In this document: positions 1,257 to 59,758 of the stretch, piece after piece
Layout of the letters: every line of letters begins with the position of its first letter
How positions within the stretch are numbered: position 1 is the stretch's first letter
DNA from: a virus
Lineage: Duplodnaviria > Heunggongvirae > Uroviricota > Caudoviricetes
Reading direction: 5' to 3' (one strand)
Virus record (IMG/VR): IMGVR_UViG_3300034061_003277
Location: 64,479-128,478 of that record
DNA: 64,000 bases
Program-made: the position numbers and the translations under genes
Notes under the pieces: model-generated
What the model saw: only the letters and a program-made list of their open reading frames with translations
The model's database searches: none
Told to the model about the DNA's origin: nothing

Positions 1257-3845
1257 ATGAGCAGCCCAGCAGTACACTATGCTAAAATTAGCAAAATAAA
1301 TAAAGAAGGATTTGACATAACCGGCTATCTTTCTCAACTTAACACATTCACAATACAATCTGATGATGTTGGGGAGTTAAACTATAATATTTTATCCTCT
1401 CAAGAGCATCCTACATATTACTTATATCAAGTTGAACCGGTATATACTACATCCTCTTATTACCAAATTTTAGATTATACGTTAAGTGCGGCTAGAGATG
1501 GCATAATTACTGGTAACATAGGCAGCACAGTTATTAGTAATTATACTAGTGTAGACAGTAACCCAAATTCTTATTTCACTGCTTCAAGTGGTGATTATTA
1601 TTTTTACGACACACCTAATATAAGTCTATCGTCTTCATTTACATGCTCATTACTTCTAGATCCAACAACATTTTTAGGCACAGGTAGTAGAGTATTTGTA
1701 AGAATAGCCAGACCTGATGGGGTAGTTTTAACAAAAGATATGTATGATCTAAGCGGATACAATCTCGCCTTTAATCCTACCATATCTGGCTCAACAGTAT
1801 TATCTTTTAATACTCTTTCAACACCATACCCATACAACCCAGGAATTATAGAAAACTCATCGCTTCGAGTATGGGTTACAAATGAAGACCCAGGAGGAGG
1901 AATTGGTGGCCCAGTGAAAATTAAAGACTTCCAATTTAATATATTTCAATCTACAAATCCACAAACCCCACCTGATAGTACTGTTGTATTCTCACCAGAC
2001 CAAGTAAACTTCTTCTATTCAGATTATAATCCGTTATATGGAAATGCTGAGATAAATAGGATATCTCAATTTAGAATGGATGTTGATTATTCTGATAATC
2101 CTTTAGTACCTATTAATTTTGACCAACTGATATCCGGATCCGCAACAAGAGCTGAAGTTCAAGATTCTAATTATGCTTCTCAAGCTTGGTCTAATATAAG
2201 GTATAATGGGTGTGCATCCACAGCTATATTCTCCCAGCTAAATGATGGATTTAATGCTCCTGCAACCCCTCCTGTACCTAATGCTTTAGATAGTGGTTAT
2301 GGTGCTCTTTCACCTGCTGAAAAGAATGAGGCCCTTTTTGCTTATTTTGAAGGAGTAGAAGGAACAGGACCTGAAATTATAGGCCAGACTGCTTATCTTG
2401 TTAAATGGATTATAGACGAAAAAGGAAACGTAACTGACCCTGAAGTTAATATAGATCCATTCACTGGTTTGCAACAAAATGTAGGTGTTATAAATCTAAC
2501 AGATACATTTGAGCCTGGTAAGAATGCCAATGTATCTTTAATATCTAATGACCCATTATTAACATCTAATCCAAATGATGACGCATTAACAGGAATACAT
2601 CCTATAACACACCTTGGAAGAATAAACAGTATACTTATTACTGAAACTGGGTCTAACTCAATAGATTATCTTAGAACCGCTTCTTTTTCTGAGGTTGTAG
2701 AGGGAGTATCACCATCTGTAAACTATAATTTTTTCGCTCTTAGATCTAGCACCATACAAATAAGTCCTAACAGCCCAGTTATTGTCAACTGGAGTAGCGT
2801 AACATCAGATCCATCTAACGCATTCACTCCTCATACTACTTATTACGAATCGCCAGGAGATACTACAGTAGATAATATTCAAGTACAATTTTCTTCTAGA
2901 ATTATAGTAAGAAATACACTTGATGACGATAATACTAACCCAACAATATCTCTAGCAATTGAAAAATCAACAGATGGAGGAGCGACATGGCAGGCTATTC
3001 CTATCACAGGGCAATTTAGACAAGGAAATAATACTGGGTGGTGGCAAAATCCTACTTATTACAATGGAAATAACCAATGGGGATTTATAGGTATAAGTTT
3101 AGCTTTAGGTGCTCCTAATATGTTAAATGAAATTAAAATAGCTACGCCATATATAGATCTAAATACTGGTGACAGAGTTAGATTATATATAAATAGCACT
3201 GATGGTTATAAATTATACGGATTAGACGAAGATGCCAACACTTGGTTCACAGCAAACATGACATATAATCCCCAACTAGAAGCCACTTCTAGTTACTGGA
3301 GAGTAGGTACCTACCACCCAGCATATTCTCGTGAACTTACAGTCCTAACCGCTTCAAATCAATTAAACCAAATATATAACTCTCAGGTACCATATTATCA
3401 AAATATTTATACTGGAATAGATACAACAACATCTCCTCCTACACCTACATCTACAGTTTTAGATTTTGGGTTTAGTGTTCCTCAAATAGCTTTTAATAAT
3501 GGTGATATGGGAGGCCCACGCCCTGGAGATTATATAAGATTTGAATATAATCCTAATCAAGTATATAATATCAAACAAATAGGAGTAGTGACTAATCCTT
3601 CATCTTCATATTTTGGAAATTTAACACTTTCTGTTTTCCCTCCTATCCCCTCTACTGCTAACCTAAACCATTTTAATATATATCGGGTAGTGAATGATGG
3701 CTCATCAGTTATATTAGATGTGCCTAAACCTACAAGTGGTTATAGTTTTAGCGGATTATTATACCCTCAATTCTTAAGTGAAACATTACAAGCATCATCT
3801 TCAGCGATAGTTCAAGATCTATCAACGAAAGGAATAATATCATAA
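1257..3845 (+). CDS. Large virion structural protein (862 aa), probably baseplate-associated
   Basis: Long ORF, beta-rich S/T/N/P composition, within the structural block. Confidence 0.6.
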   Translation: MSSPAVHYAKISKINKEGFDITGYLSQLNTFTIQSDDVGELNYNILSSQEHPTYYLYQVEPVYTTSSYYQILDYTLSAARDGIITGNIGSTVISNYTSVDSNPNSYFTASSGDYYFYDTPNISLSSSFTCSLLLDPTTFLGTGSRVFVRIARPDGVVLTKDMYDLSGYNLAFNPTISGSTVLSFNTLSTPYPYNPGIIENSSLRVWVTNEDPGGGIGGPVKIKDFQFNIFQSTNPQTPPDSTVVFSPDQVNFFYSDYNPLYGNAEINRISQFRMDVDYSDNPLVPINFDQLISGSATRAEVQDSNYASQAWSNIRYNGCASTAIFSQLNDGFNAPATPPVPNALDSGYGALSPAEKNEALFAYFEGVEGTGPEIIGQTAYLVKWIIDEKGNVTDPEVNIDPFTGLQQNVGVINLTDTFEPGKNANVSLISNDPLLTSNPNDDALTGIHPITHLGRINSILITETGSNSIDYLRTASFSEVVEGVSPSVNYNFFALRSSTIQISPNSPVIVNWSSVTSDPSNAFTPHTTYYESPGDTTVDNIQVQFSSRIIVRNTLDDDNTNPTISLAIEKSTDGGATWQAIPITGQFRQGNNTGWWQNPTYYNGNNQWGFIGISLALGAPNMLNEIKIATPYIDLNTGDRVRLYINSTDGYKLYGLDEDANTWFTANMTYNPQLEATSSYWRVGTYHPAYSRELTVLTASNQLNQIYNSQVPYYQNIYTGIDTTTSPPTPTSTVLDFGFSVPQIAFNNGDMGGPRPGDYIRFEYNPNQVYNIKQIGVVTNPSSSYFGNLTLSVFPPIPSTANLNHFNIYRVVNDGSSVILDVPKPTSGYSFSGLLYPQFLSETLQASSSAIVQDLSTKGIIS

Positions 3846-3853
3846 TATTTATA
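3846..3853 (+). promoter_or_regulatory. Putative phage late promoter TATTTATA
   Basis: Motif recurs upstream of >20 genes in the window. Confidence 0.65.
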
Positions 3854-12306: not shown

Positions 12307-12324
12307 CCCCTAAAAATAAAATAT

Positions 12325-12495
12325 ATGAAACAAGAGTTATTTGAACAAATGCAAACTTTGTGGAATGAGTTAGTGGAAAACCATAACGAGACTACAAAAG
12401 CAGCAGCAGGTCGCGCTAGAAAAGCAGCTAGTAACCTCAAAAAAGTAATTGCAGCTTATAATAAAGCATCAGTTGCTGAAGGTAAAACTAAATAA
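12325..12495 (+). CDS. 56-aa histone H1-like Hc1-family small basic protein (not in ORF track)
   Basis: MKQELFEQMQTLWNELVENHNETTKAAAGRARKAASNLKKVIAAYNKASVAEGKTK; KAAAGRARKA core resembles the Hc1 N-terminal domain. Confidence 0.65.
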   Translation: MKQELFEQMQTLWNELVENHNETTKAAAGRARKAASNLKKVIAAYNKASVAEGKTK

Positions 12496-12510
12496 GTATA
12501 CCTAAACTAA

Positions 12511-12545
12511 AAGATACGGGGGGTGTAAAATACCCCCCATCTTTA
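12511..12545 (+). terminator. Intrinsic terminator-like hairpin
   Basis: aagat..GGGGGGT-gtaaaat-ACCCCCC-atcttt. Confidence 0.65.
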
Positions 12546-12559
12546 TAAAAATAAACGTC

Positions 12560-36510: not shown

Positions 36511-36538
36511 CCTCTCCTAAAATAGTATTTTAGGATTG

Positions 36539-36568
36539 ATGCCTCTCGAAAGAGAGGCATTTCTTTTT
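36539..36568 (+). terminator. Intrinsic terminator
   Basis: ATGCCTCTC-GAAA-GAGAGGCAT followed by ttcttttt. Confidence 0.8.
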
Positions 36569-36599
36569 CATCCATGTGCATTTTTAAAGAATCCTCATA

Positions 36600-36709
36600 T
36601 ATGTATATTAGAATATACTGCTCATCTATGCAGTATCTATTAACTAACTATCTATTACGTTTCTTAATAAACGTATTTCCAAAACAAATTAATTGAGGAG
36701 AAAAACAAA
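36600..36709 (+). promoter_or_regulatory. Late-promoter variant (TATGTATA) and structured 5' leader of the scaffold-capsid operon
   Basis: Hairpins 36615-36636 and 36656-36675; GAGGAG at 36695-36700, 9 nt before ATG. Confidence 0.5.
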
Positions 36710-37747
36710 ATGAGTAAAACCTTATTTAAAGAAGCAATTGCCGATGCTAGAGCCGTTAAAGAAACAGCTATAGAAAGTGCAAAGGCTGCACTTGAGGAAG
36801 CATTTACTCCACATCTTAAATCAATGTTCGCTGCAAAGTTAGAAACACTAGCTGAAAACGACGATTATTTAGGAGAAGAGGAAATGAAAGACGAGATGCA
36901 AGACGAAACCCAAAATGAAGCTGCAGAGATGGATCTTGAAGAAATCTTACGTGAACTAGCAGAACTAGAAGAATCTGAAAATTCAAACAAAATCGACGAA
37001 GAAGCCGATGAAGCGTTAGAAGAAGAAGAAACTGAAGGTATCTATGAAAACGAAGACAAAGAAGAAGAATCTGAAGAAGATTTTGACATTGAAGACCTAT
37101 CAGCTGAAGATCTTAAAGAACTTGTAGTTGATATTATGGTTGATTTAGGTTTAACTTCAGCTGAAGAAGCTGCTAAATTAAAATCTAAAGAAGCTGGCGA
37201 CGATGAAATGGAGATGGGTGATGATGAAATGGGTGAAGAAGAAGAAACTGAAACAGAGGTTGTTGACGAAATCGATCTTAACGAACTTCTTGCTGAAATC
37301 GAGCTTTTAGAAAAGAAAAACAAGAAAAAAGCTATGAAAGATGAAGAAGAGAAAGAGAAAGATGAAGAAGACAAAGAAACTAAAAAGTTGAAAGAAGATC
37401 TTCAAGAAGCTATGGATTCATTAAATGAATTGAAAAACGAATTAGATGAAGTTAATTTATTAAATGCTAAATTGCTTTACACTAATAAAATTTTCAAAGC
37501 TAAAAACTTATCTGAGACACAAAAAATAAAAGTATTATCAACATTTGATAAAGCGAGTTCTGTAAAAGAAGTTAAACTAGTATATGAAACTTTATCTGAA
37601 GGATTAACTACCTCAACTGAGAAAAAATCCCCAATTAAAGAATCATTAGGTTCAGCTTCAAAAGCAATGGGTATGGCCCCTAAAAAACCAATAATTGAAT
37701 CCAACGAAGTATTTGCACGTATGCAAAGATTAGCTGGAATTAACTAA
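36710..37747 (+). CDS. Prohead scaffolding protein (T4 gp22-like)
   Basis: Highly acidic coiled-coil immediately before the capsid gene; NLLNAKLLY..K.F motif; C-terminal FARMQRLAGIN. Confidence 0.85.
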   Translation: MSKTLFKEAIADARAVKETAIESAKAALEEAFTPHLKSMFAAKLETLAENDDYLGEEEMKDEMQDETQNEAAEMDLEEILRELAELEESENSNKIDEEADEALEEEETEGIYENEDKEEESEEDFDIEDLSAEDLKELVVDIMVDLGLTSAEEAAKLKSKEAGDDEMEMGDDEMGEEEETETEVVDEIDLNELLAEIELLEKKNKKKAMKDEEEKEKDEEDKETKKLKEDLQEAMDSLNELKNELDEVNLLNAKLLYTNKIFKAKNLSETQKIKVLSTFDKASSVKEVKLVYETLSEGLTTSTEKKSPIKESLGSASKAMGMAPKKPIIESNEVFARMQRLAGIN

Positions 37748-47453: not shown

Positions 47454-47494
47454 ATTGATTAATTGTTTTAATATTTATAATAAACTTATATCTA

Positions 47495-50384: not shown

Positions 50385-50711
50385 ATGGTTTGGAATAACT
50401 TAAGTATAGAATTAGTAAGTAATAATGAAATAATAAACACTGGATTTGCCACTAATGAAGGTTTAGTTACTTTAACTCCACTTGAAATTCAAGAAACTTT
50501 AGAAATTATATTCTATGAAATTGAAAATCCATCATTAAAAAAAGGAATACCATCACAACCATTATGGGATTCATTTTATATAAAACTATGCGATGATAAT
50601 GTAGTAGTAAATTTTGTTTTAATTGAAAAACAAATTATGGAGTATGATATGATGATAAATGACTATACTCGCCCTGAGTATTTGAAATTTCAATATGATA
50701 ATTTAATATAA
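50385..50711 (+). CDS. Hypothetical protein (108 aa)
   Basis: ORF starts 1 nt after the previous stop. Confidence 0.55.
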   Translation: MVWNNLSIELVSNNEIINTGFATNEGLVTLTPLEIQETLEIIFYEIENPSLKKGIPSQPLWDSFYIKLCDDNVVVNFVLIEKQIMEYDMMINDYTRPEYLKFQYDNLI

Positions 50712-50725
50712 TATTTATAGACAAA

Positions 50726-51880
50726 ATGACTAATAATCTCCAAATCTTTGAATTTAATCCTTCTAGACCACGGCTGTTTAAAAGAATTATAACTCATGTC
50801 AAACAAATATCAGGTATGTTTGTTAAAGGTCAATCTTCATATAATAATATTTTAAATGAAGATATATCCAAAGGAACAACCCCCACAATAATTATTACTA
50901 AATCTCCATATGGTTCATATATAGCACCATTAGTAAACATTTACGGAGAAGAAATTAAAGAAGCTTGGAATCTCAATTATACCATCTCCACCACTGTTAA
51001 ATTAAACCGATTCCCATCTACAGTTTACACCCCAGACTTAAAAAAGTTAACTAAAAATAATGAACTAGAAAAAGATCAAATTTTTTATCATAAATCATTT
51101 CCTATAACTAAAAAAAGAACAGATTTAGCAGTATACCATTATGGAGAACATTATATCTCACAAAATATAATAGGTTATGAAAAAGGAGTAGATGAAAATG
51201 GAAATGGTATTAAAATTCCAATATATGAAAATGTAGTTAATGAAAAACCATTAGGGACTATTGAATTTGGAGCTATGGCACCTTATTTCCAAGATGCTAA
51301 AAAACCATCTAATTTATTTTCATTGTGTGTATATATAAACTTAGGCAAAACTAGATACTCATTATATACTGATTATAAATTTAAATTAGGAAGTATAAAT
51401 AAAATTGACTTTTCAATAGAGACTATTAAGCCTACTGACCTAGAAAACGAAAAATGGATAAGAGAAATAAAACTATTTGTTAATGGTGAACAACAAGAAG
51501 TAGTTCAATATTTTGGAAAAGTATGGAATAAGCATAAAAAAGAAATTGAATCTGGGATAATTGCTTCTTCTCCTAATTTTGGCCAATATGCAAATGCTAA
51601 AAGACCACCTAAAGGCCTTGAAGAATTAAAAATACATAAATCTATTATAGATTATATGGAAATACCTACAGATTGGTTAAAGTTTTTAAATAAAATTGAA
51701 TGTTCTCCTATTGTTAGTAGACATTCTAAAACATTATCTTCTAAAGATTTACCTTCTTTAAATAATGGTGTAGATTTTGGTCCTATTAATATTTATAGTA
51801 GCACAACTGAAAAAGACAAAGAAATACTCCCTGAGTATGAAAAAGCACTCCCTAACGAGGGGGCTTCACAAGATATTTAA
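50726..51880 (+). CDS. Hypothetical protein (384 aa), basic, directly followed by structured RNA
   Basis: TATTTATA at 50712; no family recognised. Confidence 0.65.
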   Translation: MTNNLQIFEFNPSRPRLFKRIITHVKQISGMFVKGQSSYNNILNEDISKGTTPTIIITKSPYGSYIAPLVNIYGEEIKEAWNLNYTISTTVKLNRFPSTVYTPDLKKLTKNNELEKDQIFYHKSFPITKKRTDLAVYHYGEHYISQNIIGYEKGVDENGNGIKIPIYENVVNEKPLGTIEFGAMAPYFQDAKKPSNLFSLCVYINLGKTRYSLYTDYKFKLGSINKIDFSIETIKPTDLENEKWIREIKLFVNGEQQEVVQYFGKVWNKHKKEIESGIIASSPNFGQYANAKRPPKGLEELKIHKSIIDYMEIPTDWLKFLNKIECSPIVSRHSKTLSSKDLPSLNNGVDFGPINIYSSTTEKDKEILPEYEKALPNEGASQDI

Positions 51881-51886
51881 CGCGTT

Positions 51887-52082
51887 TAGGTGAGAACCTG
51901 GACTATAGACCATCTTCTCGATTTACATGTATCTTGAGGGTGAAGGTGCCAACTGTGACCTCCTTAGCGGGAAGGAACGGTTGGAAAATTTAACTCGTCT
52001 AGTTCGAGTTAAAGTGATGCTAGTGGGGGTTTAATCCCCTTCGGGGGATTAGATTCCGGGGCCATCCGGCACAACTAGCATC
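51887..52082 (+). ncRNA. Candidate structured non-coding RNA, family unknown
   Basis: GC-rich island in an AT-rich genome with stems AGGT-GAGA-ACCT, CCAACTG/CGGTTGG enclosing TCCTT/AAGGA, TTTAACTCG/CGAGTTAAA, GATGCTAGT/ACTAGCATC enclosing TAATCCCC-TTCG-GGGGATTA; no ORF in track; terminator follows. Confidence 0.65.
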
Positions 52083-52092
52083 TTGAAAACTA

Positions 52093-52127
52093 AAAAAGCT
52101 GGGGAAGTCGCGCTCCCTGGCTTTTTT
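52093..52127 (+). terminator. Intrinsic terminator (A-tract and T-tract, possibly bidirectional)
   Basis: aaaaaAGCTGGGGA-agtcgcgc-TCCCTGGCT-ttttttt. Confidence 0.75.
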
Positions 52128-52179
52128 TATTTTAATTAATCTATTTTACTTTCCTAATATTTATAACAAAATCTAACAC

Positions 52180-53340
52180 ATGAATGTTCCTATATACCCT
52201 GGCAGCTCGTCATTCTACCCAGGATTAACACCATTTGGGTTTTATGACTATGATTATCAATTTCAACAAGATGCTGATAAAGTAACAACATTTTGTGCTC
52301 GTAGATTAGGATACCCTATTATGGAGGTAGAGTTACAAAACTTAAACTTCTATGCTGCTTTTGAAGAGGCAGTTACAACATATGGTAATGAATTATACGC
52401 ATTTCAAGTTAGAGATAACTTATTATCTTTAGAAGGAACATCTACAGGATCAAATTTAAATAATGCTCTTATCACCCCCAATATGGCTAATATTGTCAGA
52501 TTATCTCAACAATATGGCGAAGAAGCGGGAGTAGGAGGTAACGTAAATTATTATAGTGGATCTGTAGCATTAACATCTAGCATTCAAGATTATGACTTAG
52601 CACAATGGGCTATAAGTAATGGAATTGATGGAGGAATAGAAATTAAACAAGTATTCTTTTATCCACTACCCGCTATTAATCAAATGTATGCCCCATATGG
52701 TGGATTCGCAGGATTAGGAGGAGTACCATCAGCTGGTATATATGGTGGAGGAATGTTAGGTAGTGGATATGGTACTGGTTATTTAATGATGCCATTATCA
52801 TATGATATGTCTACTCTTCAAGCAATTGAAATGAGTAACCAAGTTCGCTTATCTAATTACTCATTCCAGTTAATTAACAACAAATTACGAATATTCCCTA
52901 TACCTTTCACTGAGGATGAAACACATGGTGGATATATTTGGTTTAATTATATCAAATCATCAGAACGTTTAAATAATGGATTAGTTACTCCTGGAGGAGT
53001 TACAAACCCATCAAACGCTCCTTACGGTAACCCAGTATACACTCAAATTAACTCAGTTGGAAGACAATGGATATTTGAATATACTTTAGCTTTAGTAAAA
53101 GAAATTCTAGGATATGTACGTGGAAAATATAGCACTGTACCTATCCCAGATCAAAATATGACTCTTAACCAAGCTGACTTGTTAGCATCAGCTACTGCTG
53201 ATAAAAATGCTTTGATAGAAAGATTAAGATTTTATTTTGATGATACTTCACAAAAAGCTTTACTTGAAAGACGTTCACAAGAAAGTGAATTTAGAAAACA
53301 AGAAATTATGAATGTACCAATGGTAATTTATATAGGATAA
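52180..53340 (+). CDS. Neck/head-tail connector protein (T4 gp13-like)
   Basis: RRLGYPIMEVEL...FEEAV, QWIFEYTLALVKEILG.VRGKY..VPIP motifs; position in neck module. Confidence 0.8.
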   Translation: MNVPIYPGSSSFYPGLTPFGFYDYDYQFQQDADKVTTFCARRLGYPIMEVELQNLNFYAAFEEAVTTYGNELYAFQVRDNLLSLEGTSTGSNLNNALITPNMANIVRLSQQYGEEAGVGGNVNYYSGSVALTSSIQDYDLAQWAISNGIDGGIEIKQVFFYPLPAINQMYAPYGGFAGLGGVPSAGIYGGGMLGSGYGTGYLMMPLSYDMSTLQAIEMSNQVRLSNYSFQLINNKLRIFPIPFTEDETHGGYIWFNYIKSSERLNNGLVTPGGVTNPSNAPYGNPVYTQINSVGRQWIFEYTLALVKEILGYVRGKYSTVPIPDQNMTLNQADLLASATADKNALIERLRFYFDDTSQKALLERRSQESEFRKQEIMNVPMVIYIG

Positions 53341-54773: not shown

Positions 54774-57359
54774 ATGGCTATATTAACACTAAGACAAGGC
54801 TCAATAGCAGGAACTTTACCTAATGACGTATACTTAAAAGGAGCAAAAATATCCATTAGTGAAATGGATAACAATTTAATCTTTTTAGCGAATACTCTTT
54901 TAGGACCCGAAAACTCAATATCAGGCTCATTAGTCCTATCAGGTTCATTAGTGGATTTTACACAAGTAACTTCAGTAATAGGATTAAACATGACTGGATC
55001 TGTCGGTACTTTTACAGGTTCATTTACAGGTTCATTTAGTGGTGATGGAAGCGCATTAACAGGAGTGACTGGAGAATGGGACGGAACACATGATGGTAAC
55101 GCTCAAATCACTGGAAGTTTATCTCAAGGATTAAATAATACTACAACTGGCACTTATTCACACGCTGAAGGATTTCAAACCACTACTGTTGGAGATTATT
55201 CACATACTGAAGGATACGGAACAATAGTAGATGGTACTGGGGCTCATGCTGAAGGTAATTCAACAACTGCTATAGGTAGCTACTCACATGCTGAAGGTTA
55301 TTTCACTACTACTACTAATACTTTCTCACATGCTGAAGGTAAAGAAACTACATCAGCGGGATATGCGTCTCACGCTGAAGGATCAGGATCAATATCTTTA
55401 GGATGGTATTCACATGCTGAAGGTTTTAGAACAACAACACCCGGTATGCATTCTCATGCTGAAGGGAGAACAACAACGTCGGTTGGTGAGTACTCACATA
55501 CTGAAGGGCTACAAACTGTAGCTATAGGCACTGGCTCACACGCTGAAGGACATATAAACTTAGCACAGGGTAATTATTCACATGCTGAAGGTAATGTTAG
55601 TACTGCTGAAGGTCAATACTCACACGCTGAAGGAAATGATACTGTAGCCGCTGGTCAATTCTCACATGCTGAAGGATCACAAACTAAAGCAGCATCAAAT
55701 GGATCACATGCTGAAGGTCTATTCTCAACAACAATAGGTGTTAGTTCACATGCTGAAGGTTATCTTACTACATCAAAAGGATTTATCTCTCATGCTGAAG
55801 GATATTCAACAACATCATCTGGTTCTTATTCTCATACTGAAGGAAGTGGCTCTATAGCAGTAGGAGATGCATCACACGCTGAAGGATTTCAAACAACTGC
55901 TAAAGGAAATGGATCTCATGCTGAAGGTGTTTCATTCATTGTAGGAACTGGCATTATTACCCCCGCCTCAGTCAATTATTTTGAATATGACGAATACTCA
56001 GGAGGCGTAGTTTCATTAACAACAACAACATTAGTAGTAGATGGTGACTACTCAGGCAATACAGTTCCATATACTATAGAGTATCTTTACTTAGAAAATC
56101 CATCTTATGCTTATCAAATAAATGCTTATTATTATACAACTTTCCCAATAATAACAAATATTTCATATAGTGCAGGAACTGATGAAAGTACATTTACATT
56201 CTCCCCAGCACTCCAACCATTTTATAATGATGTTACTGGTTCACAAAATATAGCATCTGGATCATATTCGCACGCTGAAGGACAAGGCACTACTTCAGTG
56301 GGATTAGCTTCACATACTGAAGGATGGAATACTACAACAGTAGGTAATTATTCTCATGCTGAAGGATTCCAAACTACTGCTATGGGTAATTATTCACATG
56401 CTGAAGGAGGTTATACCCAACCTTTAGGTTATGGATCACATGCTGAAGGAATAGGTTCTATAGCTGAAGGCGAGTACTCACACGCTGAAGGTGATAATAC
56501 GACTGCTAAAGGAATTAGATCACACGCGGAAGGCTCTTCAACAATAGCTTCAGGCTCTTATTCACATGCTGAAGGAGCCGGCACTATCTCAATTGGACAA
56601 GAATCTCATTCAGAAGGAGCTTCAACAACTTCTATTGGAAATTGGTCTCACGCTGAAGGAAGTGCTAATAAAGCAATAGGAGATTGGTCTCATGCTGAAG
56701 GATATTTTACTACAGCAATAGGCGATTGGTCACATGCTGAAGGATCTAATACAAAAGCGTCAGGTTCTAACTCACACACTGAAGGATCAGGTACTTTAGC
56801 TATAGGCTCTTACTCACACACTGAAGGATCAAATACTTTAGCAATAGGATTAGCATCACATGCTGAAGGTGTTGAAGTTACAGCATCTGGTGATTATTCT
56901 CACGCTGAAGGTTTTAGAACAAAAGCAATTGGATATTCCTCACACGCAGAAGGTTATCAAACTATAGCATCTGGTACTTATTCACACGCTGAGGGAGCTC
57001 AATCAACAACAATAGGTCTTTATTCACACGCTGAAGGTCAAAGTACCACATCAATAGGATACAGCTCACACACTGAAGGTCGAGGTACTGTAGCATCAGG
57101 ATCATACCAAACTGTAGTAGGCCAATATAATGTATATAATGATACTACTAGCCCATTTATTGTAGGATTCGGAACATCAGATTCAATTAGAAAAAATGCT
57201 TTTAAAGTGACATTAAGTTCTTCTATTGTAGTAGCAACTCAAAGTGCTGCTCCAGCATGGGCGGGCACAGAAGGAGAAATGATACCTGTAAATAATGGTG
57301 GATCATATTTCATATACACTTATATTGGAGGAGCTTGGAGATCTGCATCTCTAGCTTAA
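54774..57359 (+). CDS. Fibre/adhesin with YadA-head-like 14-aa SHAEG repeats
   Basis: About 39 H[AST]EG repeats of 14 aa in two blocks, ending QTVVGQYN...FIVGFG. Confidence 0.85.
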   Translation: MAILTLRQGSIAGTLPNDVYLKGAKISISEMDNNLIFLANTLLGPENSISGSLVLSGSLVDFTQVTSVIGLNMTGSVGTFTGSFTGSFSGDGSALTGVTGEWDGTHDGNAQITGSLSQGLNNTTTGTYSHAEGFQTTTVGDYSHTEGYGTIVDGTGAHAEGNSTTAIGSYSHAEGYFTTTTNTFSHAEGKETTSAGYASHAEGSGSISLGWYSHAEGFRTTTPGMHSHAEGRTTTSVGEYSHTEGLQTVAIGTGSHAEGHINLAQGNYSHAEGNVSTAEGQYSHAEGNDTVAAGQFSHAEGSQTKAASNGSHAEGLFSTTIGVSSHAEGYLTTSKGFISHAEGYSTTSSGSYSHTEGSGSIAVGDASHAEGFQTTAKGNGSHAEGVSFIVGTGIITPASVNYFEYDEYSGGVVSLTTTTLVVDGDYSGNTVPYTIEYLYLENPSYAYQINAYYYTTFPIITNISYSAGTDESTFTFSPALQPFYNDVTGSQNIASGSYSHAEGQGTTSVGLASHTEGWNTTTVGNYSHAEGFQTTAMGNYSHAEGGYTQPLGYGSHAEGIGSIAEGEYSHAEGDNTTAKGIRSHAEGSSTIASGSYSHAEGAGTISIGQESHSEGASTTSIGNWSHAEGSANKAIGDWSHAEGYFTTAIGDWSHAEGSNTKASGSNSHTEGSGTLAIGSYSHTEGSNTLAIGLASHAEGVEVTASGDYSHAEGFRTKAIGYSSHAEGYQTIASGTYSHAEGAQSTTIGLYSHAEGQSTTSIGYSSHTEGRGTVASGSYQTVVGQYNVYNDTTSPFIVGFGTSDSIRKNAFKVTLSSSIVVATQSAAPAWAGTEGEMIPVNNGGSYFIYTYIGGAWRSASLA

Positions 57360-57632: not shown

Positions 57633-57682
57633 CTTTTACACCCTCCTTTGATATTTATAACAAAATTAAATAACAACATCAC

Positions 57683-59758
57683 ATGGCAGAAACCTTAATA
57701 TCCCCAGGAGTATTAGCGAGAGAAAATGATTCTTCATTTGTTTCTCGCCAACCTATTGCTGCTGGAGCCGCAATTATTGGCCCTACAGTTAAAGGACCTG
57801 TAAATATACCTACATTAGTTAGTTCATATAGCGATTTCAAAAATAAATTTGGAACTGTATTGATTAGCGGTAGTGATACTTATACTTACTTTACATCTAT
57901 AGCAGCCTACAATTATTTTAACAACGGAGGAGTTTCATTACTAGTAGCTCGAGCAGTAAATGGTAATTATTCCCCAGCAACTAGTTCTGGTATCATTAAC
58001 TCTGAACCATCACTCCCAGGAGCATATTCTAGAGGCAATGTGAATATAGTTAATGACTTAGCAATTGGATCTGGAGAAGTTAGAGTGACAGGAAGTTTCG
58101 GCTTATACAGATATATTTCTACTGCTACAGTAGGTACACCAGCTGATGATGTTGATGGACAATTATACTATTTTGCTAGTGGATCTAACCTTGCAGCGAC
58201 TGCAACCAATTTAGCTACTGTATTAAACACAACTTTAGGTAGCTATTTTACAGTAACTTCAGGATCAGGTGGATTGATTTTCTCTTCATCAGTATCATCT
58301 TCAGCATATAATGGAACAGCTATCCTCTCAGGATCTGGAACTACTTTCTCAAATATATTAACTATCAGCGGAGGTGTAACAGGAATTGGATCAGTACCAT
58401 TTGTGTTAGAAACACTTTCTGAAGGCGAAATTATGAATAGTGATGGCCCAATTGATGCTTATGGAGCATTAGCTAGTGGGTCTGCTGATAACATTAGATG
58501 GGAAATATTAAACTCAGATGCAGATTCAGGAACATTTGACTTATTAATAAGAAGAGGTGATGATACAACTAATGACCAAATTGTATTAGAAACTTGGACT
58601 GGATTATCATTAGACCCAACTCAAGGAAACTTTATAGCTAAAGTATTAGGTGATCAAGTTGAAGTATATAACCCAACAACTAATCAAATTGAATTAACTG
58701 GATTCTACGCTAATGCATCTCAATATGTAAGAGTAAGTACTGTTAATTATTTAACACCAAATTATTTTGATAATGCAGGTTCACCAAAACCACAATATGC
58801 TGATTACCTTCCATTAGATTCTGAAGGAGCATTTGGTGGAGCTTTAGGTGATGTGATGGGTGGAGCTAATTTCTACAATGATATCAACTCAACTAACACA
58901 CAAGGATTAGTAGGAACAGATTATGATAATATGATTAATTTATTATCAAACCAAGATGACTATATATTCAATGTGTTAATGACTCCTGGTTTGATTAACT
59001 CATTACATTCTTCACAAGTAACAAGCATTATTACAAATACTCAACAAAGAGGAGATAATATCTATGTAGTAGATATGGTTCCTTATGGATCAAATGTAAA
59101 CGCAGTTGTAGCTCAAGCTACAAGTAGAAATACTTCATATGCCGCAACATACTGGCCTTGGACTTTAGTATTCGATCCAGACACTGGAGACATGGTTTGG
59201 GTACCAGCTTCAACAGTAATTGGTGGAGTATATGCTTACACCGATAACGTATCAGAACCTTGGTTTGCACCAGCAGGTATTAATCGTGGTGGATTACAAG
59301 TAGTAAGAGCTGAGCAAAAATTACCACAATCATATCGCGATACTTTATATAATGGAAAAGTGAACCCAATCGCTACATTCCCATCAACCGGAGTAGTAGT
59401 ATATGGTCAAAAGACATTACAAACAAGAGCATCAGCATTAGATCGTGTAAATGTTCGCCGCTTGTTAATTGCTCTTAAAGCTTATATTTCTCAAGTAGCT
59501 CAAAACTTAGTGTTTGAACAAAACACAGCAGCAACAAGAAATAGCTTCTTAGCAGTAGTTAACCCATACTTAGAAAGTGTTCAACAAAGACAAGGATTGT
59601 ATGCGTTTAAAGTAGTAATGGATGATACAAATAATACAGCAGATGTAGTAGATAGAAACCAATTAGTAGGTCAAATTTACTTACAACCAACTAAAACTGC
59701 TGAATTTATTTACTTAGATTTCAACATTACTCCAACAGGAGCTACTTTCCCAGCGTAA
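57683..59758 (+). CDS. gp18: Tail sheath protein (T4 gp18-like)
   Basis: LISPGVLARE, PWFAPAGINRG, YGQKTLQ...SALDRVNVRRLLI, PTKTAEFI. Confidence 0.97.
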   Translation: MAETLISPGVLARENDSSFVSRQPIAAGAAIIGPTVKGPVNIPTLVSSYSDFKNKFGTVLISGSDTYTYFTSIAAYNYFNNGGVSLLVARAVNGNYSPATSSGIINSEPSLPGAYSRGNVNIVNDLAIGSGEVRVTGSFGLYRYISTATVGTPADDVDGQLYYFASGSNLAATATNLATVLNTTLGSYFTVTSGSGGLIFSSSVSSSAYNGTAILSGSGTTFSNILTISGGVTGIGSVPFVLETLSEGEIMNSDGPIDAYGALASGSADNIRWEILNSDADSGTFDLLIRRGDDTTNDQIVLETWTGLSLDPTQGNFIAKVLGDQVEVYNPTTNQIELTGFYANASQYVRVSTVNYLTPNYFDNAGSPKPQYADYLPLDSEGAFGGALGDVMGGANFYNDINSTNTQGLVGTDYDNMINLLSNQDDYIFNVLMTPGLINSLHSSQVTSIITNTQQRGDNIYVVDMVPYGSNVNAVVAQATSRNTSYAATYWPWTLVFDPDTGDMVWVPASTVIGGVYAYTDNVSEPWFAPAGINRGGLQVVRAEQKLPQSYRDTLYNGKVNPIATFPSTGVVVYGQKTLQTRASALDRVNVRRLLIALKAYISQVAQNLVFEQNTAATRNSFLAVVNPYLESVQQRQGLYAFKVVMDDTNNTADVVDRNQLVGQIYLQPTKTAEFIYLDFNITPTGATFPA

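Follow-up and report, generated by a model that had tools for sequence, protein, structure and literature searches.

Protective stem-loops at the 3' ends of transcripts include the RNase III-processed 3' hairpins of phage T7 and the REP-type 3' stabilisers. The sib/tI element of phage lambda is a retroregulator of int, in which sib, a single long RNase III hairpin, arises only when transcription reads through, and CpxQ and SroC are small RNAs of enterobacteria derived from 3' untranslated regions (3' UTRs). We analysed a 64,000-nt stretch of DNA (the window) that belongs to a 140-kb IMG/VR virus record (IMGVR_UViG_3300034061_003277) with an estimated completeness of 82%. The source is a T4-like phage, uncultured and from fresh water. 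It is a myovirus of low GC content whose neck and sheath are of the T4 type (the tail sheath gene lies at 57683, by Pfam and PHROG matches), and its closest named relatives are distant (Microcystis phage Mel-JY01, 43% amino acid identity in gp13, and Flavobacterium phage immuto, 39%). Downstream of a late gene for a 384-residue protein, the window encodes a multi-helix RNA that represents a real and previously uncatalogued RNA family; its existence, strand, boundaries, and linkage to that gene are well supported.

In its likely mode of action, this RNA comes closest to phage mRNA structures that stabilise or retroregulate from the 3' end and to the 3'-UTR-derived small RNAs. Like intrinsic terminators and protective stem-loops, it occupies the 3' end of its transcription unit with a GC hairpin and a U-tract, and as they do it probably acts as a barrier to 3' exonucleases and insulates the unit that follows; unlike them, it has about 210 nt with five covarying helices upstream of the terminator and belongs to one gene family. 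It shares with lambda sib/tI a position in cis, 3' of the gene that it would control and overlapping the terminator, from which, as we propose here, it may set the fate of the mRNA; it appears to differ in having no conserved double strand of at least 20 bp, and it shows no sign of two transcript forms. As with CpxQ and SroC, the terminator is common to the RNA and its parent mRNA, and a conserved AU-rich single-stranded lead could be a cleavage site, but the RNA is much more structured than typical seed-bearing small RNAs. The pRNA of phage phi29 (RF00044) is likewise a phage multi-helix RNA of about 170-250 nt from the virion-morphogenesis region; it shows no match in sequence or structure, however, and it has its own promoter and binds the portal, whereas nothing ties the RNA of the window to packaging.

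The RNA fits no described family, and the only label that applies is that of a terminator, to its last 36 nt. No family in Rfam 15 (4227 models, with the family gathering score as cut-off) gave a match anywhere in the window, in keeping with a preliminary description, made from the sequence alone, that had left the class unassigned. The top family over the element was manA (RF01745), a multi-stem RNA of marine bacteria and cyanophages, at 16.5 bits against a gathering score of 55.2; this is chance level, and in a scan of five homologous loci manA was not recovered and no family recurred. A match to the CRISPR repeat CRISPR-DR46 (18.9 bits against 50) falls in a dispensable hairpin (P5a, see below) and was rejected. 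ARAGORN found neither tRNA nor tmRNA in the window, bearing out the earlier statement that the element is not a tRNA and lacks tmRNA ends.

Architecture of the RNA in the window

The minimum free energy (MFE) fold of the plus strand between 51881 and 52127 contains five helices, P1 to P5, with sub-hairpins P5a and P5b and an intrinsic terminator (Table 1). About 210 nt of RNA precede the terminator, and the first helix begins 4 nt past the stop codon (51878-51880), where the preliminary description had spoken of a few nucleotides. The stems and loops that it listed, among them two perfect 9-bp helices, a GAGA loop, and a c(UUCG)g loop, are all present in both the sequence and the fold, and its closing terminator was confirmed. 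A GC-rich hairpin followed by a U-tract accounts for this terminator alone and leaves P1-P5 unexplained. The unpaired segments between the helices include conserved motifs: CUA follows P1, (A/U)GUG(C/A) sits 5' of P3, and AAAAU sits 5' of P4, with GUGAU directly 5' of P5 in the window; tandem U·G pairs within P1 are conserved as well.

Table 1. Positions of the RNA, the late gene that precedes it, and the start of the following unit, numbered along the window
Feature	Position	Strand	Remarks
Late promoter AATATTTATA of the 384-aa gene	50710..50719	+	6 nt before the ATG; fits the 17-site consensus
384-aa late gene (P0001)	50726..51880	+	Possible lectin-type jelly-roll virion/fibre accessory protein, from weak fold matches
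Single-stranded lead (AAGAUAUUUAACGC)	51870..51883	+	Carries the AAAGAU(AY)-type motif and the stop codon
P1 hairpin	51884-51903	+	8 bp; GAGA loop at 51892-51895; MFE fold, covariation
P2 hairpin	51911-51942	+	7 bp, internal loop, 3 bp; MFE fold, covariation
P3 hairpin	51949-51984	+	Apical CUUAGCGG (C-U-[UAGC]-G-G); MFE fold, covariation
P4 hairpin	51989..52013	+	Perfect 9 bp, 51989-51997 with 52005-52013; MFE fold, covariation
P5 domain	52016..52082	+	Perfect 9-bp outer helix, 52016-52024 with 52074-52082; MFE fold
P5a	52026-52057	+	Inside P5; c(UUCG)g loop; variable part; MFE fold
P5b	52061-52070	+	Inside P5; MFE fold
Intrinsic terminator	52092-52127	+	14-bp stem, U7 tail, A-tract in front; strongest in 45-58 kb
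Late promoter AATATTTATA of the next gene	52156..52165	+	PWM 25.8, best in the region; 14 nt before the gp13-like gene
gp13-like neck protein gene	52180-53340	+	PF26809 (Phage_T4_gp13) in homologues; head-tail adaptor PHROG

The plus-strand fold has an MFE of -103.9 kcal/mol (z = -6.97), which none of 200 dinucleotide-shuffled sequences equalled; the minus strand gives z = -4.29. As the preliminary description had it, the element is a GC-rich island (GC content 0.43-0.47 against about 0.25-0.35 in its surroundings) free of open reading frames of at least 40 codons, and of the eight longer intergenic regions of the window that we tested, none is richer in GC or folds better. A 35-codon frame can be read inside it, and the possibility of a small peptide was rejected because this frame is not conserved, being out of frame in a homologous locus of the same clade (L082).

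Other intergenic regions of the window fold well too. Before a 345-aa gene at 36710, the region 36511-36709 contains two strong hairpins (z = -5.4 and -4.6 on the two strands) that match no Rfam family. The structured intergenic region 12307-12559 (z = -4.3 on the plus strand) holds, at about 12510-12550, a terminator-like hairpin, GGGGGGUGU-AAA-AUACCCCCC, whose flanks, AAAGAU and AUCUUU, form complementary arms; AAAGAUAC, present here, is also the leading word of the RNA family in other phages. The AAAGAU lead is not a genome-wide motif: its one further occurrence in the window is at this terminator, in which it forms the A-arm.

Homologues, compensatory changes, and strand

Homologous RNAs were recovered by anchoring the search on the upstream 384-aa gene. 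A word search gave 10 relatives of that gene, and a profile search over 1.8 billion representatives gave 59 clusters; related contigs derive from freshwater metagenomes. The gene had been called an orphan in the preliminary description, a label that these clusters overturn. Other routes returned no copies: the RNA stretch has no BLAST match in GenBank phages, where distant relatives appear at the protein level only; the element was not found in 80 IMG/VR loci anchored on the downstream gp13-like gene, in which different genes, mostly short gaps, and varying neighbours lie upstream of that gene; it was absent from 41 loci anchored on an 81-aa gene that in some clades lies two genes downstream of the element (clades B and C, below); and a degenerate P1 pattern run over IMG/VR gave two matches, both by chance and inside GC-rich open reading frames. 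A published catalogue (PMC10690425) lists over 10,000 structured RNA candidates from IMG/VR, many of them terminator-associated. We found no other copy of the element in IMG/VR, so a comparative pipeline limited to that resource is unlikely to have caught it.

Every relative of the 384-aa gene whose downstream DNA was fetched is followed by a hairpin set and a terminator, in a long noncoding gap that aligns with the element of the window. The large form, with P1-P4, is represented by a small sample of about 10 distinct sequences in four diverged clades (A-D), whose genes are 35-73% identical to that of the window: 68-73% in L082-L089 and 35-36% in L090-L095, the latter in another genomic context. 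A covariance model of P1-P4 built from the four closest sequences, all from clade A (R1), detects clades B and C with E values of 1e-7 to 1e-11, and a second model built from three clades (R2) detects clade D (L161/L162, after a 498-aa relative) at the expected spot, although this match is weak (E = 0.005 under rough calibration). The helices come in the same order in single-sequence folds of each homologue.

Across the large form the elements are arranged as (P0), lead, P1, CUA, P2, (A/U)GUG(C/A), P3, AAAAU, P4, GUG(A/G)U, a variable 3' domain, and the terminator. In nearly all members the first hairpin is immediately preceded by an AAAGAU-type motif, whose reading frame relative to the stop codon varies, and in clades B-D a short additional hairpin with a GNRA loop (P0) precedes the single-stranded AAAGAY lead. 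Clades A and C and also L105/L106 share the P3 loop of the CUUAGCGG type (C-U-[UAGC]-G-G), and the GUG(A/G)U lead with a P5b-type GNRA hairpin recurs in clades B and C and in L088, while the topology of the 3' domain differs between clade A and clades B and C. P5a comes and goes among close relatives: its 32 nt are cleanly missing from L088 (3488-3703), where the enclosing P5 helix is retained, and this natural deletion indicates that P5a is dispensable. In the window P5 stacked on P5a forms about 23 bp, and the remaining helices have at most 10 bp; with P5a dispensable, the family would have no conserved long double strand. The terminator is identical in the window, L082, and L088, and some terminator closes the element in every clade.

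We also found a mini form of about 80 nt with three hairpins, in the order stop codon, AAGAUAU, hairpin, GUGGU, hairpin, terminator, at five loci where the gene is 25-30% identical; its stems covary, and P2-P4 are absent. Both forms begin with an AAAGAU-type single-stranded lead and end with a terminator, and intermediate or rearranged hairpin sets occur in L105, L106, L109, L164, and L167. Over 160-odd loci, the mini-form pattern is present only after members of the 384-aa gene family.

Between clades B and C, a 35-nt block between the stop codon and P1 (UAGUUCUUUAAAAAUAUUUCUACGUAAGUAGAUAAAG; L090 4069-4107, L092, L094, and L095) is identical, and the RNA beyond it has diverged to about 45% identity. 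The block contains the P0 hairpin (CUAC-GUAA-GUAG) and a near-match to the core of the late promoter (TATTTCTA). Visual inspection of some clades suggested two longer-range pairings, one between the lead and the 3' strand of P2, the other between GCUA in the P1-P2 junction and the UAGC of the P3 loop; not every clade bears them out, and they stand as an idea only.

Compensatory change is extensive. In eight distinct sequences from three clades, 95.6% of the cells in the paired columns are paired, compared with 37-49% when the 3' partners are slid by one to three columns; changes on both sides occur at 25 of the 41 pairs, and none of 500 shuffles reached any of five measures. Because this alignment had been fitted to the covariance model, we repeated the test with plain MAFFT and RNAalifold on nine sequences, among them clade D; this recovered P1, P2, and P3, and 20 of their 27 pairs had changes on both sides. 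Covariation among homologues, the check that the preliminary description had named, is thus seen both with the fitted alignment and independently of the model. By helix, both sides have changed in 4 of the 8 pairs of P1, 6 of the 10 pairs of P2 across clades, and 7 of the 9 pairs of P4, in which every cell is paired; compensatory changes are also found in P5 and P5a within clade A and in P5, P5a, and P5b in clades B and C. Identity of the RNA between clades (0.43-0.60) is at or below that of the gene DNA, so that the RNA is no better conserved in sequence than its gene, and structure is what selection keeps.

The structure is selected as RNA on the plus strand, the strand that had been proposed from the sequence. 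Three consecutive pairs at the base of P1 (columns 5/30, 6/29, and 7/28) are U·G in 7, 8, and 6 of the eight sequences; read from the opposite strand or formed by DNA, these would be C·A mismatches, and further G·U pairs would likewise be mismatched on the opposite strand, which identifies the functional molecule as plus-strand RNA rather than DNA or an antisense transcript. Clade A homologues also fold far better on this strand (in L082, z = -6.2, against -0.7 on the minus strand).

The probable late transcription unit and the 384-residue protein

The late promoter of the window consists of AATATTTATA followed by an A-rich stretch, and is found at 17 sites, 6-32 nt ahead of gene starts (for example, 3844-3853, 47470-47479, 50710-50719, 52156-52165, and 57650-57659). 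It has T in place of A when compared with the T4 late motif TATAAATA, which itself occurs only five times on the plus strand of the window. In clades A-D, AATATTTATA lies directly before the homologous gene. The sole match to the promoter core between the gene and the RNA is TATTTATA at 51790-51797, with a score of 6.6 as against at least 13.4 at real sites. It coincides with the invariant Ile-Asn-Ile-Tyr (INIY) codons near the C terminus, 90 nt before the RNA. With its poor flanks and an occurrence expected by chance at this base composition, we rejected it as a promoter of the RNA's own; it is probably a chance match, although it could be a weak internal start. Since no good promoter intervenes, the RNA is probably cotranscribed with 50726..51880, as the preliminary description had suggested. 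The simplest reading of promoter, gene, RNA, and terminator, with a fresh promoter after them, would be one monocistronic late unit.

The RNA is linked to the upstream gene and not to the downstream one. What follows the element depends on the clade: gp13 comes next in clade A, clades B and C have two small genes and the sheath gene, and clade D has an 83-aa gene together with a reversed glycosyltransferase gene. Lying between stop codon and terminator, with no promoter of its own, and retained when the downstream gene changes, the element has the properties of a 3'-UTR element.

The 384-aa protein (P0001; relatives P0004-P0069) matches no Pfam or PHROG family. Its family is unannotated and has the invariant motifs IEFGAMAP, YTD(Y/F)KF, GKVW.KHK, and NNGVDFG.INIY. 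We found no relative in 185,579 prokaryote genomes, and hence no prophage copies; the family is known from phage and metagenome contigs only. An AF2 model is beta-rich (pLDDT 49, pTM 0.59), and its weak Foldseek matches, to alginate/ulvan lyases, legume lectins, and toxin receptor-binding domains, share the concanavalin-type jelly roll; given the low confidence of the model, they are only a hint. Some relatives carry a fused Laminin_G_3 or Ig-like domain. The gene follows those for a 962-aa fibre protein and a 108-aa protein, and in clade A and at the mini-form loci it stands directly before gp13, the position that wac holds in T4. P0001 therefore looks like a carbohydrate-directed accessory protein of the virion surface and not like an RNA enzyme. 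With a lectin-type neighbour instead of an RNA enzyme, readings of the element as a TnpB omega RNA or an IS110/IS1111 bridge RNA are ruled out; the neighbour has lectin/lyase jelly-roll matches and neither a Pfam nor a PHROG family, and the element is single-copy. Farther downstream, between the neck genes and the sheath gene, an 861-aa late protein (54774-57359) carries many YadA-head-type repeats (PF05658, E = 1e-23), a repeat of bacterial trimeric adhesins.

Function of the RNA

At about even confidence, we favour a structured 3'-UTR RNA that acts in cis on the mRNA of the 384-aa gene, in end protection or processing, possibly with release of a stable RNA. The RNA would be the structured 3' untranslated domain of a self-contained late unit, the next gene restarting from its own promoter. 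A compact 3' end would set the stability or processing of the mRNA, and hence the yield of the protein, and cleavage in the conserved single-stranded lead, a plausible site for it, may free a stable 3'-derived RNA. A good deal is conserved beyond one protective hairpin, namely CUA, (A/U)GUG(C/A), AAAAU, GUGRU, the C-U-[UAGC]-G-G loop, the tandem U·G pairs, and recurrent GNRA loops. Five helices and conserved junctions where one hairpin would protect suggest a specific partner or a tertiary fold.

Since this complexity exceeds what protection needs, the main rival is a trans-acting or protein-bound RNA: an independent or processed noncoding RNA, or the RNA part of a ribonucleoprotein (RNP), whose 3'-UTR place is a mere mode of expression and whose partner would be a protein of phage or host, perhaps the 384-residue protein itself, or else a second RNA with which it pairs. 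With its conserved unpaired junctions, the GNRA loops of P0 and P5b, and the tandem U·G pairs of P1, the architecture is more elaborate than a 3' end requires; the association with one gene family is strict through different neighbourhoods; and the 35-nt P0 block has stayed identical in clades B and C despite divergence of the remainder. Yet no promoter of the RNA's own is convincing, the linked protein is weakly lectin-type and matches no RNA-binding family, the mini form retains hairpins and short linkers only, and no complementary target was found. The one pairing tried, of the AAAGAU lead with AUCUUU in Ile-Phe codons 7-8 of the 384-aa gene, was rejected because other clades use AUA UUU. 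We therefore hold a trans-acting RNA to be possible but doubtful. The preliminary description had offered "a phage ncRNA, ribozyme or RNP component": the structured RNA stands, on covariation, while ribozyme and RNP roles are not supported, the first for want of a known family or core and the second in view of the lectin-type neighbour.

Decidedly unlikely, in our judgement, is a regulatory sensor or antitermination element that decides between a stop at 52092-52127 and read-through into the neck genes, by binding a ligand or protein or by modifying RNA polymerase as the put RNAs of phage HK022 do. A structured domain does lie directly ahead of a strong terminator in every clade, and the conserved junction nucleotides resemble an aptamer core. 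However, no alternative pairing of the terminator is conserved (the sole partial complement is in P5a, which L088 lacks), no riboswitch family in Rfam 15 scores, read-through is unnecessary given the strong late promoter in front of the downstream gene, and downstream genes vary by clade while the RNA stays with the upstream one.

That the element has no RNA function of its own, being a pile-up of terminator-like hairpins, a DNA element (an origin, a recombination end, or the end of a mobile element), or an overlooked gene for a small protein, is largely refuted by covariation and very improbable. Its place at the edge of a swappable fibre module, the gain and loss of P5a between close relatives, and the 35-codon frame readable in the window would fit such a view. 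Against it, helices are kept by compensatory changes while the sequence drifts to 43-60% identity, the U·G pairs conserved in P1 would be mismatches in DNA or on the other strand, the small frame is lost in L082, and the mini and large forms are seen only after the 384-aa gene family. The preliminary description had named a match to a transposon end or origin as grounds for giving up an RNA, and here too the outcome favoured RNA: the element is single-copy in its genome, and neither a second copy, flanking repeats, nor a reverse transcriptase was found in the record, whose estimated completeness is 82% (RVT_1 has no match in its 140 kb). The lack of a reverse transcriptase and of a second copy of the stretch also rules out the template repeat of a diversity-generating retroelement (DGR) and a retron RNA. 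Least probable of all is a new class of self-cleaving ribozyme, one that would trim the 3' end of the mRNA: phages are known to have small ribozymes, and the multi-helix junction, conserved unpaired nucleotides, and 3'-UTR position would suit one, but no Rfam ribozyme model (hammerhead, twister, pistol, hatchet, HDV-like) matches the window or its homologues, no known catalytic core is conserved across clades, a CUGAUGA string in P2 is confined to clade C and lacks a GAAA partner, and the mini form is entirely without P2-P4.

The element would enlarge RNA libraries by one family; if the fold only protects the mRNA end, as the cis-acting 3' UTR that we favour might, the result is a modest gain in annotation. 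More speculatively, and in our view unlikely, the RNA may be an autonomous, tertiary-folded molecule that coevolves with a fibre protein of receptor-binding type, either as a 3' riboregulator that senses a ligand or protein or as an RNA partner or chaperone; such a fold would be built on the tandem U·G pairs, the GNRA tetraloops, and the conserved junctions. A sensing riboregulator would tune the amount of host-recognition protein made, and a partner or chaperone in expression or assembly would be the second RNA of virion morphogenesis after phi29 pRNA. The 3' ends of genes in bacteria and phages have been surveyed for structured RNAs far less than 5' leaders have, and the present fold, elaborate and covarying, keeps to one fibre-module gene family, even at 35% gene identity. 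For the function of complex 3' UTRs in phages, be it in mRNA stability, in processing to a stable RNA, or in recognition by a protein, the modular series that it forms, from three hairpins up to seven or more, offers a clean system.
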